Part shown: piece after piece, positions 6,703 to 50,048 of the stretch
Layout: each line of letters opens with the position of its first letter
How positions within the stretch are numbered: position 1 is the first letter of the stretch
Origin: Candidatus Bathyarchaeota archaeon
Lineage (GTDB): Archaea; Thermoproteota; Bathyarchaeia; Bathyarchaeales; Bathycorpusculaceae
Assembly (NCBI GenBank): GCA_963828195.1
Contig: CAWHDT010000005.1
Span: 256,001 to 320,000, forward strand
Direction of reading: 5' to 3'
DNA length: 64,000 nt
Notes under the pieces: model-generated
What the model was told of the DNA's origin: nothing
The model's input: the letters and a program-made list of their open reading frames with translations, nothing else
Database searches by the model: none
Translations under genes and position numbers: made by a program

Positions 6703-7727
6703 AGGAACTATGGATCGAAATTGGCAAAAAACTAGCTGCCCCGCCATCAAAAATCATTGACGATTACTTTGATGTAGTTATTGATAGCGGCAAAGCTACA
6801 TTTTGGGCAATCGATAAAAACAAACAGGTTGACATTGTTTCTCCAAACAAAGGAGAGCGGCTGGAAAACGCCAATGTTAAAAACGAGATTCTGCGGATTT
6901 GTATCAGTGATAAAGAAACTGAAAACCAAATAGTTGAAGCGGCAGAGCTTGGAGCAAGCTACTTAATTATAAGCTGCGCTAACTGGCGTGTTATTCCTTT
7001 AGAAAACCTTATTGCCCGAATAAAGGGCAAAAGTAAACTCATTGCCGAAGTTACCACTGCTGAAGAAGCCAAGATAGCGCTGGAAACCCTCGAATTAGGA
7101 ACCGATGGAGTTTTACTGAAAACTTCAGACAGCGAGGAAATTCTCAAAGCAGTTGCAGTCGTTAAGCCTGAAGCTTTGAAGCTTGAAATGGCTGTGGCAA
7201 AAATAATTTCTACCAAGCCCATCAGCACGGGCGCTCGAGTTTGCGTAGACACGTGCGATTTGATGACTCAAGGTGAGGGGATGCTTGTGGGCAGCCAAAG
7301 TGCTGGTTTATTTTTGGTGGAGGCAGAGGTGCATGAGAACCCCTATGTTGCGTCTCGGCCGTTTAGGGTGAACGCGGGGTCCTGTTCCATGTATACACTG
7401 GGCAGTTTGCAGACCACTCGTTACCTGCAAGAATTCAAGGCAGGCGACGAAGTCATAGTTGTCAATCGCGAAGGCAAAACCCGCAAAACCAACGTGGGAC
7501 GCATAAAAATCGAGATCAGACCGCTCATCTTAGTAGAAGCGCAAGTCGAAGGCAAAACCATAAAAACTATCCTTCAAAACGCCGAAACCATTCGCCTAGT
7601 AACGCAAGAAGGCTCAAAGCCCGTAACTGAGCTTAAACCCAGCGACGAAGTTATCGTGCACTTAGCCGCCAAGGGAGGCCGGCACTTCGGCATATCAGTG
7701 CCTGAAGAAACGGTGATAGAAAAGTGA
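6699..7727 (+). CDS. aroB': 3-dehydroquinate synthase type II (archaeal AroB')
   Basis: WRVIPLENLIA, RVCVDT, RPFRVNAG, LQNAETIRL and GRHFG motifs. Confidence 0.92.
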   Translation: MKELWIEIGKKLAAPPSKIIDDYFDVVIDSGKATFWAIDKNKQVDIVSPNKGERLENANVKNEILRICISDKETENQIVEAAELGASYLIISCANWRVIPLENLIARIKGKSKLIAEVTTAEEAKIALETLELGTDGVLLKTSDSEEILKAVAVVKPEALKLEMAVAKIISTKPISTGARVCVDTCDLMTQGEGMLVGSQSAGLFLVEAEVHENPYVASRPFRVNAGSCSMYTLGSLQTTRYLQEFKAGDEVIVVNREGKTRKTNVGRIKIEIRPLILVEAQVEGKTIKTILQNAETIRLVTQEGSKPVTELKPSDEVIVHLAAKGGRHFGISVPEETVIEK

Positions 7728-12815: not shown

Positions 12816-13895
12816 GTGCTTTACGAAATAAATGAGAAAGCCATAAGGCTCGAAAATCAAGGCAAAAAAATAATCCGCTTAAACCTAGGAGACCCAGACT
12901 TAGCTACGCCAAACGAGATAATTGAAGCTGCGTACGCGGCGATGAAGGCGGGCAAAACAAAGTATTCTTCCTCTTACGGCGAAACCAACCTCAGAGAAAA
13001 GCTCGCCGAATTCCACGGAGTTAAAGCTGAAAATGTTGTTATCACTCCTGGTTCAAAATGGGGCATATTCGCTACAATGTATCTTATGTTGAAGGCTGGG
13101 GGAAACGTTATAATTCCCATGCCTTACTGGACAGCTTATGATTTAATCGCTAAAAGCCTTGGTGCTCAAACCAAACTTTTAAAGACCGAGATGGAAAATG
13201 GCTGGAAAGTAGATTTAGACAAGCTTGAAGCCATGATTGACAGCAACACCCGCATGATTATACTTAACAATCCGAACAATCCGACAAGCAAAGTCATGGA
13301 TACTGAAACACTTGACGGCATAGTTGAGATAGCCAACAGGAAAGGCGTTACAATATTGTCCGATGAGGTTTATGGCACAATCAGTTTCGTTAAATCAAAA
13401 AGCATCTTAGAGTACAACGGCAACCACAAACACATCTTAACCACTGGCTTCTCCAAAACCTTCACCATGACAGGCTGGCGAATAGGCTACATCGTGGCAA
13501 ACAAAGAGTTAGTCAACAACATAACCAAGCTAAACCAAATCACAATCAACAACGTCCCAGTTTTTATTCAGGAAGCAGCGCTAAAAGGGCTAGAAATGCA
13601 GAAACAACTTGCCACAAAAATAAAGAAGGAATATGAAGAACGCGCAAAAATGGCAAGCAAAACCTTAGCCAAAGCAGGATTCTTATTCACTGAGCCTGAA
13701 GCGCCGTTCTACGTGTTTCCCATGCATAAGGGTTTAAACTCGGAAAAATTCACTTTAGAACTGCTTGACAAGGGCGTAGCCGTTGCTCCAGGCACAGCCT
13801 TCGGCGATTATAGTGAGCATTTTCGCATTTCCTTAACCGCGCCGAGAGATCAAATTAAGGTCGGGTTGGAAAAAATCAGCGAGGCTCTTGAATGA
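12816..13895 (+). CDS. PLP-dependent class I/II aminotransferase (aromatic/aspartate)
   Basis: NNPNNPT, SDEVY, FSKTFTMTGWRIG and PGTAFG motifs. Confidence 0.9.
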   Translation: MLYEINEKAIRLENQGKKIIRLNLGDPDLATPNEIIEAAYAAMKAGKTKYSSSYGETNLREKLAEFHGVKAENVVITPGSKWGIFATMYLMLKAGGNVIIPMPYWTAYDLIAKSLGAQTKLLKTEMENGWKVDLDKLEAMIDSNTRMIILNNPNNPTSKVMDTETLDGIVEIANRKGVTILSDEVYGTISFVKSKSILEYNGNHKHILTTGFSKTFTMTGWRIGYIVANKELVNNITKLNQITINNVPVFIQEAALKGLEMQKQLATKIKKEYEERAKMASKTLAKAGFLFTEPEAPFYVFPMHKGLNSEKFTLELLDKGVAVAPGTAFGDYSEHFRISLTAPRDQIKVGLEKISEALE

Positions 13896-45784: not shown

Positions 45785-46453
45785 TCATAACGTACCTAAA
45801 TAAATACTCCAGCACTTCAGCGAAGCAACGATTATCCTGAAGTTGGCTCTAACTTTGCCGCCGATCCGCGGGTTACCGCGTCTAGGCGGAGGCTCATACA
45901 GCACTTCGCCAATTTTAAAGCCGCACTTTTTAGCAACAACCAACAATTCGCCACCAAAAGTTTCTCCACCCCTTAAGCTAAAAAGGGGAACTGTCTCTTT
46001 TTTGTAAACCCTAAAATTTGAGAAAAAATCTGACACACCGAAAACTTTTCCAAGAGTCTTAGACGCTAGCCGCTCCGAAAACCTCGGAACAGCTGTCCGC
46101 GACGCCACCACTAAATCATACTCGCTTAATTCACTAACCAGCCTTGGTATGCAATCTGGGCTGTTTTCAAGGTCAGCATCTATAGTAACTATTGCAGGGT
46201 ACTTGGCTAGTTTCATCCCATACAGCAACCCTTTGGTTTGTCCTTCCCGAACTTTAGAAACAGCAACGTCCGCGACAAGCCTCGCCGCCTCAAAGGTTCC
46301 ATCTGTTGAGCTGTCGTCAACAACTATGACTTCATGCGGAATATCCTTCAGCGCGGACCTGACCCTGCGGATTAACTCTTCAATGTTTTCTCTTTCGTTC
46401 CATGTAGTGGTAACCACAGACACACCCCCGACCAATCCGCCCAGCGTACTCAT
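45785..46453 (-). CDS. Glycosyltransferase family 2 (DPM synthase-like)
   Basis: WNE.ENI, VVDDSSTDGT, IDADL and VASR motifs. Confidence 0.85.
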   Translation of the reverse strand: MSTLGGLVGGVSVVTTTWNERENIEELIRRVRSALKDIPHEVIVVDDSSTDGTFEAARLVADVAVSKVREGQTKGLLYGMKLAKYPAIVTIDADLENSPDCIPRLVSELSEYDLVVASRTAVPRFSERLASKTLGKVFGVSDFFSNFRVYKKETVPLFSLRGGETFGGELLVVAKKCGFKIGEVLYEPPPRRGNPRIGGKVRANFRIIVASLKCWSIYLGTL

Positions 46454-46549
46454 AAATAAGCCTAGCCAACCCACAACTAATAAGCCCATCCCCCTAAAAA
46501 GCAGCCTGGAAAACAACCCAAAGGCAGGCAGCTGAGCATGTTTTTTTGT

Positions 46550-46601
46550 TGATGCTGAGCGGTGGAACTTGAACCCACGAAGGCTTGCGCCAGATAATCT
46601 A
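46550..46601 (-). repeat. Degenerate tRNA-Leu 3'-half (att-like) repeat 3
   Basis: Minus strand TAGATTATCTGGCGCAAGCCTTCGTGGGTTCAAGTTCCACCGCTCAGCATCA. Confidence 0.65.
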
Positions 46602-46619
46602 TTTTTTTCTTTTGGCTAA

Positions 46620-46961
46620 ATCTTTTTTTTGGCGTTAGGTCCACTGCATCGACGATCATTTCCCTGACGAGCGACCGTTTGCTAACTTTCTGAAATTCCT
46701 CGGGAGTATACATTAGCAAATCCAACTCTTCAACAAATGACCAATCATCCAGAAGCATCTTCCCACGCTCAAGAGTGTTCATGCCCCTGAAGCTTTTTGA
46801 AACAACTATCAAATCGACATCACTGCTTTTTTGTCTTTTTCGCTTCGCTGTTGACCCAAAAAGAAGAACCTTTTCAAGCTTTATTTTCGAATCCACATTC
46901 TTAGGAACTCCTCGATTTTATCCATCAGAGGTTTGTCATCGTCAAGCACGCTTTTTGTCAT
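46620..46961 (-). pseudogene. Minimal nucleotidyltransferase (MNT antitoxin), frameshifted near the N-terminus
   Basis: LFGS...SDVDLIVVS and D.L.YTPEEF motifs; N-terminal MTKSVLDDDKPLMDKIEEFLR is in another frame; the ORF runs on through repeat 3. Confidence 0.7.
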
Positions 46962-47022
46962 TCGACTCTGCATGCAGGAAGGTGTCGTGACTATTTTGAT
47001 TTTTCTATCTTGAAAACACTAT

Positions 47023-47080
47023 TGGTGTCAGAGGTGCGAGCTTGAACCTACGAAGGTCTGAGCCTGAGATACTTAATCCT
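47023..47080 (-). repeat. Degenerate tRNA-Leu 3'-half (att-like) repeat 2
   Basis: Minus strand GGATTAAGTATCTCAGGCTCAGACCTTCGTAGGTTCAAGCTCGCACCTCTGACACCA. Confidence 0.65.
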
Positions 47081-47141
47081 CCTCCAAATTAAATCCGTTC
47101 CAAAGTGGTGTTTTTCAAAACACTGACTTCCATAATGAGGG

Positions 47142-47549
47142 TTAGCTGTTCAGTACACTAAGCATTTCATCAATAGTTAGGATTTTTATCCCTTTGAATT
47201 CTTTTAATGCAAGCAGGTGCCTGTCGCCTGAAACGATGTAGTCAGCTTTTCCATCATATGCTGTTCTAACAATAACGTCGTCATCAGGGTCTTCTTTGAC
47301 AGCTTTGAATCTGGATTTTATTTCTATTATTCTTTCAGCATTCCCTAAGGTGTTAAGAAAGATTGTTACATACTGTTCATTTGTGTACTTTGCTACTTTG
47401 GGATCTTCTATTACATCAAGAAACTCTTCGAGTATAACTTTGGATAAAACTAGCTGTTTATGCTTTATCAATTTATTGAAGAGGTCGCGCGGTTTTCCGG
47501 CTTTAATCATCGCTGAAACCAAAACATTGGTGTCAAGAACAACCTTCAT
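47142..47549 (-). CDS. PIN-domain toxin
   Basis: VVLDTNVLVSA, DPDDD and ADYIVSGD.HLL motifs. Confidence 0.92.
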   Translation of the reverse strand: MKVVLDTNVLVSAMIKAGKPRDLFNKLIKHKQLVLSKVILEEFLDVIEDPKVAKYTNEQYVTIFLNTLGNAERIIEIKSRFKAVKEDPDDDVIVRTAYDGKADYIVSGDRHLLALKEFKGIKILTIDEMLSVLNS

Positions 47550-47559
47550 TCTTTAATTG

Positions 47560-47850
47560 TCACTTTGAGCGTTTTTTTATTTGCCTGTGCTCATGGATTA
47601 TCTGGTTTATCTCGTCGTTTGAGAGTTCGCCATATTTTGCGATTCTTTCATCAACTCGTTTGTACATGGCTTCTATTTCTTTCGTCAGGTCAGGTTCTTC
47701 AAATTTTTTCAGAATTACTGAGTCGTTGCATTCGTAAACGAGAAATTTTGTTTTCGGTTTGAGGCCCATTCTGGACCTTATTTTTGCAGGTATGACGACT
47801 TGTCCTTTTTCGCTGAGAATCGTGAGTTCGGCTTTTTCGTTTTGAGCCAT
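47560..47850 (-). CDS. AbrB/MazE/SpoVT-family antitoxin
   Basis: SEKGQVVIPAKIR..MGL motif; directly upstream of the PIN gene. Confidence 0.9.
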   Translation of the reverse strand: MAQNEKAELTILSEKGQVVIPAKIRSRMGLKPKTKFLVYECNDSVILKKFEEPDLTKEIEAMYKRVDERIAKYGELSNDEINQIIHEHRQIKKRSK

Positions 47851-47999
47851 CTGTAGCCCCCGAATAATATCTTACTTTCTTACATAAAAAGGTACTTCCA
47901 CCACAAACCATCAGCACGCTACCCATCAACGATGCCCACAAGATTCCAATTTATGCAAAGAATTGATCGTTTAACCAAAAAAAAAGACCACATATCTAA

Positions 48000-48049
48000 T
48001 GGTGCCCGAAGGGGGACTTGAACCCACAGATGCCTGCGACTAAGTCTTA
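48000..48049 (-). repeat. Degenerate tRNA-Leu 3'-half (att-like) repeat 1
   Basis: Minus strand TAAGACTTAGTCGCAGGCATCTGTGGGTTCAAGTCCCCCTTCGGGCACCA; no matching 5' half seen. Confidence 0.7.
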
Positions 48050-48509
48050 TCAACACAGGTCCATCGGGAGTTCAATTTTTTGTAGTGGAGCTTTTTTTCT
48101 GTTCTTTCTCGGTGTTGGATTAAGCCTCAAACTACTGGTACCCCTACCAGTTACTGGTGGTAGCGCCAGTTAACTGTCTTCAAAACCAAGACACGGTTGC
48201 TTAAGGCGCATTTACAGCCATCGGAACCGCAACTTTGTCTCGCCGCCAGCCCCGCCGGCCATAGATAAGGGAAGGATACAATTTGCACTCGGCTCAGATA
48301 CGCCCGCAAAAACACGGCGTCAGACGCTGCAGACCGCTTATTTTTCCAATTTCGCCACAACCGTCCTCAAGCCGCGCCTATGTCTGCCAATCAACCCAAA
48401 GCCCAAAACACCAAAATAAAAAGTCAACTAAAAATCGCCGATCCCAAAGCGCAACCAAAAAATTCACGCGCCCATATCCGACAATAACTTCAACATGGAG
48501 TCAACAATG

Positions 48510-48638
48510 AAAGTCGCAACCCGCCCATCCCAAAGTCGCAAACCACAAACGCCCTCACACCCCAAACCAAAAAAACAACCCAAAACACAAAGACCCAAGG
48601 CGGAAAGTCGCAACTTACGCCAGCGCAAAAGTCGCAAC
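48510..48638 (+). repeat. Four direct repeats of AAAGTCGCAA
   Basis: Copies start at 48510, 48532, 48604 and 48628. Confidence 0.85.
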
Positions 48639-48743
48639 TTTAATTTTTTTATGCACAAACAACAACGGAATCTTAAAATAATTGGAAGAACTGATGTGTT
48701 AACGAATTCATAAATTAGGGTAAGATTAATTGAGGATGAAAAA

Positions 48744-50048
48744 ATGAGCAAATCAGATAAACCCCACTTAAACATCATCATCATGGGGCACGTTGACGCG
48801 GGAAAATCCACAACAACAGGCCACTTACTTTACTTAGCAGGCGCAATTGACGAAAGAACAATCAAAGCCTTTGAAGAAGAAGCCGAAAAAATGGGCAAAG
48901 GCACCTTCAAATTCGCTTGGGTTCTAGACAACCTCAAAGAAGAACGAGAAAGAGGAGTAACCATCGACCTAAGGTTCCTACAATTCCAAACCAAAAAATA
49001 CAACTTCACAGTCATCGATGCGCCAGGACACAGAGACTTCGTCAAAAACATGATCACAGGCGCAAGCCAAGCAGACGCCGCCATACTCTTCGCCTCAGCC
49101 AAAAAAGGCGAGTTCGAAGCAGGCATCGGCGCAGGTGGACAAACACGAGAGCACGCTTTCTTAGCATTCACTTTAGGTATTCGCCAATTAATTGTTGCAG
49201 TTAACAAAATGGATGATATATCCGTTAATTACAGCAAAGAAAGGTATGAGGAGATAAAAGCAGAAGTTTCAAGAATGCTTCGAATGGTCGGCTTTAAAGT
49301 CGATAAAATCAACTTTATACCCGTTTCAGGCTGGACTGGCGAAAACTTAATCACGAAAACTCCAAAATTACCATGGTACGCTGGTCCAACCTTAATTGAG
49401 GGACTAGATCTGCTGGAAGTACCAGTTAAACCCACCAACAAACCTCTTCGCGTCCCAATTCAAGACGTATACAGCATCACAGGCATCGGCACCGTTCCAG
49501 TCGGCAGAGTTGAAACAGGCGTTCTGAAACCAGGCCAAACCTTAGTTTTCATGCCAAGCAACAAAGTAGGCGAACTCAAATCACTCGAAATGCACCACAC
49601 TGTAATCCCGTTTGCTGAACCAGGCGACAACATCGGCATGAACGTCAGAGGCATCGCAAAAACCGACATACACCGAGGAGACGTAGCAGGAACCACAGAA
49701 AATCCTCCGACAATAGCTAAAGAATTCATCGGCCAAATCATCGTGATTTATCACCCAACCGCAATAGCAGCAGGATACACACCGGTACTCCACTACCACA
49801 CTGGCCAAATCGCATGTCGATTCACCGAACTCATAAAGAAAATCGATCCGCGCACAGGTCAAGTAACTGAAGAACATCCAAGTTTCCTTAAAACAGGCGA
49901 CGCAGCTTGGGTAAGAATGGAACCACTGCATCCGATATCAGTCGAAGCCTACACTGACTTTCCAGAACTAGGACGATTCGCAGTTAGAGACATGGGCACA
50001 ACCGTTGCTGCAGGTGTCATCAAAGAAGTCACTAAAAAGGGACCATAA
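48744..50048 (+). CDS. tuf: Translation elongation factor aEF-1alpha
   Basis: [29 protein letters not shown] and GRFAVRD motifs. Confidence 0.98.

Follow-up and report, generated by a model that had tools for sequence, protein, structure and literature searches.

Archaeal elements that encode a tyrosine integrase have been described as being flanked by direct repeats which duplicate part of a tRNA gene, and re-use of the attachment (att) site gives rise to arrays of such elements; tRNA genes, intron-bearing ones included, are the usual targets of tyrosine recombinases (excerpts of PMC6563490 and PMC8371274). It has also been recorded that tRNA-Leu(TAA) serves as a target of pT26-2-type integrases in Methanococcales (PMC8371274, excerpt). 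In this study, we analysed a stretch of 64 000 nt, here called the window, from the genome of a Candidatus Bathyarchaeota archaeon (assembly GCA_963828195.1, contig CAWHDT010000005.1, positions 256,001 to 320,000), in which three degenerate copies of the 3' part of a leucine tRNA gene, R1, R2 and R3, alternate with toxin–antitoxin genes in a block of ~2.2 kb. The best explanation of the three copies is that they are fossil att scars, that is, partial duplicates of the last ~55–75 nt of the tRNA-Leu(UAA) gene of the genus, and we consider it likely that the block they belong to is a fossil tandem-accretion island which has become detached from its tRNA gene and is eroding.

The archaeal tandem arrays described so far, from Sulfolobales, Thermococcales, Methanococcales and Thaumarchaeota, resemble the arrays considered here in their partial-tRNA direct repeats, their re-used att sites and their intron-bearing targets. 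However, the host in the present case belongs to the Bathyarchaeia, the array in the window has neither a tRNA gene at its head nor an integrase and occupies a site that is not a tRNA gene, and the cargo of the arrays in relatives is dominated by toxin–antitoxin pairs in segments of at most 1 kb. No paper on tRNA-Leu arrays in Bathyarchaeia was found in the open-access literature searched. In bacteria, islands termed ‘additive’ are enlarged by one insertion after another at a tRNA gene (PMC3698932, excerpt), and it has been reported for Prochlorococcus that later integrations push older elements into the island, where fragmented integrases and extra partial tRNAs remain (bioRxiv 10.1101/2020.12.28.424599, excerpt). 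Sequential insertion, fragmented integrases and extra partial tRNAs are what these islands and the tycheposons have in common with the present case; an archaeal host, a different integrase family with an N-terminal Zn ribbon and an att site that reaches into the tRNA intron set it apart, and tycheposons differ further in that their activity has been shown.

Chromosomal integrons, among which the Vibrio superintegrons include toxin–antitoxin cassettes, are similar in that a row of small cassettes, some of them toxin–antitoxin cassettes, lies between repeated recombination sites. Integrons have also been reported in Archaea (bioRxiv 10.1101/2022.02.06.479319, excerpt). However, the present arrays have no IntI-type integrase or attI on a fixed side, the integrase of the relatives lying downstream of the tRNA in the variable region; their repeats are derived from a tRNA and are not attC hairpins or imperfect palindromes, the predicted folds of R1–R3 being no more stable than those of shuffled sequences; and in place of promoterless single open reading frames (ORFs), their cassettes contain operons, which may face either way. 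In the ‘suicidal’ integrases of the SSV type, the att site lies inside the integrase gene (PMC7253208, excerpt). A recombinase-like frame that runs through the 3' end of the tRNA in one relative recalls this arrangement, whereas the main integrase family described below is complete and adjoins the att site instead of spanning it.

Results

R1 (w47997-48062, where w marks a window coordinate), R2 (w47018-47092) and R3 (w46548-46612) lie on the same strand, the minus strand, have a GGTTCAAG core in common and each extend to ACCA or ATCA, R1 ending in ACCA and R3 in ATCA. Each shares homology with the intron-bearing tRNA-Leu(UAA) gene that relatives in the same genus possess, namely with its 3' part between the anticodon loop and CCA, and R2 also takes in the 5' strand of the anticodon stem. 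The copies are decayed: identity to the 3' part of the gene in relatives is 38/54 for R1, 41/55 for R2 and 43/55 for R3 (70–78%), and among the three only 30–35 of 55–56 positions are identical, so that they differ by 37–45% from one another. A profile built from nine sequences, all from relatives and with R1–R3 excluded, was scanned over the whole 2.83-Mb genome and found R2 with an E value of 1.5e-9, R3 with 5.3e-9 and R1 with 3.7e-6; nothing else in the genome scored in this range except the real tRNA-Leu(UAG) and tRNA-Leu(GAG) genes. BLAST with the tRNA locus of a single relative against this genome gave E values of 1.2e-8, 1.2e-8 and 2.6e-4, and over 40 nt R3 reached 90% identity. In a DNA search, the 40-nt core of R3 had matches of 85–90% identity in most of 40 relatives, and the loci matched in this way hold an intact tRNA-Leu with the anticodon UAA. 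Because of the E values in the profile scan, a chance resemblance of the repeats to a tRNA can be rejected; the likeness is real, far beyond chance, and specific to a class II leucine tRNA, in agreement with the original prediction.

General tRNA finders do not recognize the repeats. ARAGORN called only a tRNA-Pro in the window and left R1–R3 uncalled, also when given the whole genome, and the Rfam tRNA model had no match at R1–R3 in w45500-49000 at E≤10, nor did it list their places when run over the whole genome; the sole Rfam match in w45500-49000 was that of an 18-nt T-arm segment of R3 to the tmRNA model (E 8.3). An original prediction, made from the letters of the window, had placed three degenerate, mutually diverged tRNA-Leu 3' parts here on the minus strand, and both the copies and their divergence are borne out. 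It had also held that a lack of tRNA similarity in covariance models would speak against it; this is formally what the generic models return, but it is overridden by the homology to the genus's own tRNA.

The segments between the repeats, an AbrB–PIN_3 gene pair between R1 and R2 and the remnant of an MNT (nucleotidyltransferase antitoxin) gene between R2 and R3, have homologues in the arrays of relatives, and so do the junctions. When the island was compared by BLAST with all loci fetched from relatives (denoted L with a number), the homology blocks with L027, L023 and L032 started or ended inside R1, R2 and R3. From R1 into the AbrB gene the match is contiguous, with 82% identity over 413 nt to L027 8627-8219, beginning at the second repeat of that array, and from the 3' end of the PIN_3 gene through R2 there is 79% identity over 272 nt to the first cassette and att of L023. 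From R2 onward, three blocks of 76–80% identity match the HEPN–MNT–wHTH (winged helix-turn-helix) cassette of L032, the last of them passing R3 and running 80 nt beyond it. The last att of the L032 array is the orthologue of R3, and the distal flank of the array (w46468-46547, minus strand) appears to have been carried along, w46595-46468 being 80% identical to L032 6670-6541, which comprises the terminal att and the 80 nt beyond. Cassette boundaries in relatives thus coincide with the repeats, as the original prediction had anticipated.

The block is an insertion. The glycosyltransferase (GT2) gene and the upstream region of the elongation factor gene that border it are ~140 nt apart in all eight relatives examined, and at all eight loci homology breaks at w48657 on the elongation factor side and at w46420-46441 on the GT2 side; since none of the eight has the intervening ~2.2 kb, this sequence must have been inserted. 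The GT2 gene (45785-46453, minus strand; Pfam Glycos_transf_2, 77.4 bits) has its likely start at the ATG at 46453, as read from the alignment with relatives, and the ORF on the opposite side of the insertion (48744-50048, plus strand) is one that we take to be EF1-alpha from reading its translation rather than from a family search.

At the tRNA-proximal edge of the inserted block, beside the upstream region of EF1-alpha, lies a copy of a dispersed repeat of ~175 bp (w48467-48643, minus strand) with four GTTGCGACTTT motifs. The genome contains 23 copies of at least 134 nt, the one in the window included, and two short pieces; family members are 77–89% identical and have sharp ends and no obvious terminal inverted repeats (other examples, on contigs of this assembly denoted C, are C5:424301-424487, C7:258916-259113 and C4:95734-95902). 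The family may represent a MITE, a regulatory block or a recombination site. Arrays that have no intact tRNA gene at their head also occur in relatives. The orphan array of L032 has a 5'-truncated pseudo-tRNA behind a 175-bp repeat and lies at a site that is syntenic to a different place in this genome, and L029 and L035 hold orphan arrays at a third site. A copy of the 175-bp repeat stands at the proximal edge of the orphan arrays of this genome, L032 and L029, and in L034 another lies upstream of the intact tRNA, at a distance of 1.1 kb; moreover, each of the two sites with orphan arrays in relatives bears a copy of the repeat in this genome too.

Read from the EF1-alpha side, the block begins with the 175-bp repeat, followed by ~160 nt, a 27-nt stretch, ~220 nt and then R1. 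The 27-nt stretch (w48281-48307, minus strand) may be a decayed copy of the first 27 nt of tRNA-Leu(UAA), from the acceptor strand to the D loop: 20 of 27 positions agree with the 5' exon of relatives, the alignment starts at tRNA position 1, and its score is 26, compared with a mean of 16.9 (standard deviation 2.5) for shuffled sequences. As read from the sequence, the acceptor strand of this stretch does not pair with those of R1, R2 or R3. Beyond these 27 nt, no homologue of w48063-48466, the part between the 175-bp repeat and R1, was found in relatives or elsewhere in the genome. The statement of the original prediction that no 5' half, intact tRNA-Leu or integrase is nearby holds, with the tentative 27-nt match as a caveat.

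The D-loop region of the genus's tRNA-Leu(UAA) gene is interrupted by a non-canonical intron of ~30 nt (L013–L020, e.g. L016:1550-1685). Eight of the relatives' loci, each holding an intact tRNA-Leu(UAA), yielded no gene calls at all with ARAGORN, and annotators should be aware that this intron-bearing gene escapes the program as it was run here. A tRNA query matched in 120 of 120 genomes of the genus, with a best match stronger than E 1e-30 in 103, and among the matches listed there are many partial copies on the same strand 0.55–4.7 kb downstream of the intact gene. The 5' limits of the partial copies cluster at query positions 78–80 or 86–91, which is where the intron has its 3' end or the 3' strand of the D stem begins, and the two clusters suggest two att lengths. 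The longer att class starts within the 3' end of the D-loop intron.

The original prediction had pointed to further tRNA-Leu 3' fragments and the genes flanking them as a way of checking it. Sixteen arrays were fetched from 15 relatives, which were hand-picked for listed partial copies. Each array has one to five partial copies, and an intact gene heads 12 of the 16 (profile scan). Slightly more than half of the segments between repeats (17/32) are no longer than 1 kb, and a Pfam toxin or antitoxin family is found in 17/32, mostly MazE together with PIN, with HicA/HicB in two and HEPN with MNT in one; the other segments carry a XamI-type restriction–modification pair, MFS/ABC transporters with HTH_10 regulators, glyoxalase, nitroreductase and cupin genes, or unknown ORFs. 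In L015, 690 bp separate the intact tRNA from the 99% identical copy of its final ~75 nt that follows; this segment contains a PIN gene together with a small ORF upstream, on the opposite strand.

A winged-helix gene of ~116–123 aa, with weak Pfam HTH matches that stay below the cut-off, recurs in the cassettes (L021:8101-8457, L024:6423-6779, L030:4176-4532, L032:6673-7023, L033:9348-9719 and L029 ~7190-7540, read from sequence). It directly precedes a partial tRNA copy in L032, L029 and L033 and has been deleted from the window; perhaps the integrating elements have it as part of their backbone, for example as a regulator or an excision factor.

In relatives, a specific integrase family is linked to the tRNA. 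Just downstream of the tRNA in L017, on the opposite strand, a 438-aa protein with an N-terminal Zn ribbon is encoded (Pfam Phage_integrase, 50.9 bits, cut-off 27.1), L016 has a truncated copy of this integrase, and short integrase remnants adjoin repeats in L014 and L022. A scan of species-representative genomes for the integrase gave 51 loci, of which the first 41 (L041–L081) were checked for att-like sequences. Of the 20 integrase homologues at 58–100% identity, 18 have a tRNA-Leu-like sequence 60–230 nt past the stop codon, in convergent orientation, and in eight of those 18 it is an intact tRNA gene by its 5'-exon pattern; one of the two homologues that have no such sequence reaches the end of its contig. 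The 21 weaker or fragmentary homologues include seven with a tRNA-Leu-like sequence. In L026, a 223-aa recombinase-like frame (12953-13621, minus strand; Pfam match at E 8e-4 only, below the cut-off) begins inside the 3' end of tRNA-Leu(UAA), a layout that would be expected for an integrase with the att site inside its own gene.

Both frames of the first cassette of the window are open and lie on the minus strand with 10 nt between them: a gene for an AbrB/MazE-type antitoxin (47560-47850; 96 aa, 95 aa scanned; Pfam MazE_antitoxin, 26.2 bits, cut-off 24.7) and one for a VapC-like toxin with a PIN_3 domain (47142-47549; 135 aa, 134 aa scanned; Pfam PIN_3, 58.2 bits, cut-off 27). Adjacent genes, open frames and scores above the cut-offs agree with a VapBC-like type II toxin–antitoxin system, the toxin being a predicted one. 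The ratio of nonsynonymous to synonymous substitution rates is ~0.07–0.12 for AbrB against its homologues in L002, L005 and L023 and ~0.13–0.17 for PIN_3 against those in L002 and L005, which fits a pair that is apparently intact and may be functional still or have been so until recently.

The MNT gene of the second cassette (46628-46962, minus strand; Pfam NTP_transf_2/Polbeta, 30–32 bits) is a pseudogene, as the original prediction had said, and a remnant of a HEPN–MNT–wHTH cassette. It is 79% identical to L032 7065-7387, in comparison with which a 1-nt deletion near w46897 has shifted the frame and the stop codon has been lost; the MNT-type frame at 46477-46896 has no stop and runs on through R3. 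In the same comparison ~430 bp (HEPN) are deleted, so that the region of the HEPN start codon is fused to the 5' end of MNT, and a further ~380 bp (the wHTH gene) are missing. An intact MNT gene with an adjacent HEPN gene is thus not present in the window.

Discussion

We propose that the 3' part of tRNA-Leu(UAA) is where elements encoding a tyrosine integrase with a Zn ribbon recombine, the recombining segment extending from the 3' end of the D-loop intron, or from the 3' strand of the D stem, to CCA. With every integration the tRNA would be rebuilt and the distal end of the element marked by a partial 3' copy, and repeated use of the site would stack elements with the newest beside the tRNA. 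Deletions would then strip the elements until mostly toxin–antitoxin pairs are left, which would remain because they resist loss. The stack of this genome would have come down to two remnants, the apparently intact AbrB–PIN pair and a HEPN–MNT–wHTH cassette cut to a frameshifted MNT; it would have lost its functional tRNA head and now persist as an insertion of ~2.2 kb between GT2 and EF1-alpha, where, without a cognate integrase or selection, the three scars would drift. Such a fossil island explains why an apparently working AbrB–PIN pair and a dead MNT gene are found between two housekeeping genes, and the odd tRNA halves of the window become an ordinary, datable fossil of mobile-element traffic.

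The genus belongs to uncultured, little-studied soil archaea whose mobile elements are little known. Within the genus, tRNA-Leu(UAA) seems to be a major hotspot for integration: the arrays have as many as five scars, toxin–antitoxin and defence genes are abundant in the cargo, and a specific integrase family is tied to the tRNA. The process behind the feature in the window is a known one, of which the feature is a decaying fossil and the genus-wide hotspot a modest new case.

Several observations weigh against the accretion scenario. The block was inserted at a site other than a tRNA gene, and the scenario offers no account of its relocation; a clean duplication of the target is not seen, and some of the ancestral spacer (~100 nt) has been replaced. 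The 5'-exon-like remnant is weak, with a p value of about 0.01 (3 of 300 shuffled sequences score as high). The island in the window has no integrase remnant (best tblastn match E 0.36), the best integrase in this genome being a 31%-identical paralogue on another contig. Searches by BLAST, by patterns for the anticodon arm with the T loop, by profile scans and by 5'-half patterns found no intact tRNA-Leu(UAA) in the assembly, so that the head of the array is missing. Because the arrays of relatives were chosen for showing repeats, fractions calculated from them are not genus-wide frequencies. Finally, the tRNA-proximal, and so presumably newest, segments are often only 565–946 bp long and integrase-less, with repeats that are 99–100% identical (690 bp in L015, 565 bp in L030, 784 bp in L027). 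Erosion explains such tiny proximal segments less easily than does the capture of small units or gene conversion, and conversion by the tRNA gene could underlie the near-identity of the repeats.

These small segments are also what lends some weight to the idea, contained in the original prediction, of an integron-like array. It would be a platform resembling cis-mobilizable elements (CIME-like), on which mobile cassettes of at most 1 kb that have no integrase of their own use tRNA-derived att sites with an integrase acting in trans, the block in the window being a dead copy. In its wider form, the 3' end of tRNA-Leu(UAA) would be a docking platform at which toxin–antitoxin or defence operons of 0.55–1 kb are captured, stacked and exchanged by the Zn-ribbon integrase, orphan arrays having been moved off, possibly via the 175-bp repeat. 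The segments of at most 1 kb usually hold exactly one toxin–antitoxin pair, the same cassette types have different neighbours and ranks among genomes with breakpoints in the repeats, and in 13 of the 15 arrays L021–L035 the 7.7–16.5 kb fetched contain no homologue of the integrase family. However, an integrase, where there is one, is located within the first element, on the variable side of the array, whereas IntI lies on the fixed side; integrase remnants occur inside cassettes; the cassettes hold operons in either orientation; and four of five array-bearing genomes checked have no close integrase, only paralogues of 24–41% identity. Long and short forms of the same cassette differ by ragged deletions: the widespread PIN–MazE cassette is a 1.6-kb unit in three arrays, 92–94% identical from att to att, and is ~0.87 kb long in four others, where its left part ends at 871, 914, 914 and 918. 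Its divergence follows that of the flanking core genes (92–95% against 89–92% identity in one comparison and 88–89% against 74–77% in another), as is expected of an old, vertically inherited distal relic with newer arrivals nearer the tRNA. In addition, no att-to-att joints were seen in the contigs of four public DNA runs, a weak argument because the contigs are of low depth and carry no evidence of absence. Taken together, the integrase remnants, the ragged deletions, the tracking divergence and the lack of a close integrase in most of the array-bearing genomes checked are more in keeping with larger, integrase-bearing elements having eroded than with ready-made mini-cassettes having been captured. 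We therefore give the integron-like array only a small chance of being correct, and consider its wider form as a docking platform to be similarly doubtful. Of the two halves of the original interpretation, tandem accretion at tRNA-Leu att sites is the one that stands, upheld by the arrays still attached to an intact tRNA-Leu(UAA) and by the integrase family tied to it, and the trans-acting, integron-like half is the less likely one.

It had also been suggested that R1–R3 are transcribed tRNA-like RNAs linked to the toxins, or they could be 3' halves of a split tRNA, for instance decoys or substrates of the neighbouring PIN RNase. PIN (VapC) toxins of other organisms do cleave tRNAs, the assembly has no recognizable tRNA-Leu(UAA), and in R3 the hairpins of the variable arm and the T arm can still pair. 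However, R3 is the only repeat that still forms a T hairpin: R1 has a mismatch in the T stem and its T hairpin is absent from the minimum-energy fold, the T arm of R2 is unable to pair, and the minimum-energy folds of all three are no better than those of shuffled sequences (z scores of 0.01, −0.41 and −0.68). A genome-wide pattern search for a 5' half with a D-arm motif and an acceptor strand complementary to R1, R2 or R3 gave no credible candidate. The extent to which the copies differ from each other, the silence of the Rfam tRNA model and the unrelated cargo that the repeats flank in relatives (transporters, a restriction–modification system, a glyoxalase) also speak against an RNA function, which we regard as very unlikely. 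Equally improbable in our view is a metagenome mis-assembly that joined a tRNA-Leu island to the GT2/EF1-alpha locus. The genome is in nine contigs with an estimated completeness of 96%, and the block begins with a dispersed repeat of 23 copies, a classic place for a mis-join; however, in public metagenome runs of soil and bog from several studies, independent short contigs were found that cross w48657, R1, R2 and R3 with 0–1 differences. They cover the junction between EF1-alpha and the repeat (48600-48813), R1 (48039-48189), R2 (46898-47290) and the stretch from R3 to the region upstream of GT2 (46425-46664); none of them extends over the entire block, and one of the runs may be the source sample. 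Two further joints, 47262>47627 and 48519>48625, are not bounded by att sequences and were taken to come from contigs of other organisms or of other repeat copies. The public runs listed as containing sequence of the block include no RNA run.

The missing head of the array calls for comment, as UUA codons must be read; the most likely place of this organism's tRNA-Leu(UAA) gene is therefore sequence that was not assembled. In 17 of the 120 genomes of the genus, this one counted, a strong match to the gene is wanting, and the site of this genome that is syntenic to the location of the tRNA in three relatives (C5 near 764.1 kb) holds no tRNA. A hypervariable island beside tRNA-Leu(UAA) would hamper both assembly and binning. 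Some metagenome contigs match only the core of R3 (w46561-46594; runs X1, X2 and X5) and continue on both sides as a genuine tRNA-Leu(UAA); these come either from co-occurring relatives or from the organism's own unassembled gene.

Other tRNA genes of the assembly (G000) show peculiarities as well. Those for tRNA-Tyr, tRNA-Trp, tRNA-Leu(CAA) and tRNA-Thr(UGU) are also absent from its ARAGORN and Rfam lists, for which unusual introns or assembly gaps are the likely reasons. A copy of the 3' half of tRNA-Leu(GAG) (C1:290226-290275, minus strand) lies 13 kb from the intact gene (C1:277135-277220, plus strand) in inverted orientation, and a 3'-half copy of an Arg-type tRNA is found on a different contig from its counterpart (C5:484730-484795 and C1:424886-424943). 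These orphan 3' fragments may be further att scars, one of them marking an inversion. A ‘tRNA-Leu(tag)’ with a 951-nt intron that ARAGORN called at C7:257869-258912 (minus strand) begins 4 nt past a copy of the 175-bp repeat and has an ORF in the intron; it is probably a false call or an interrupted tRNA.

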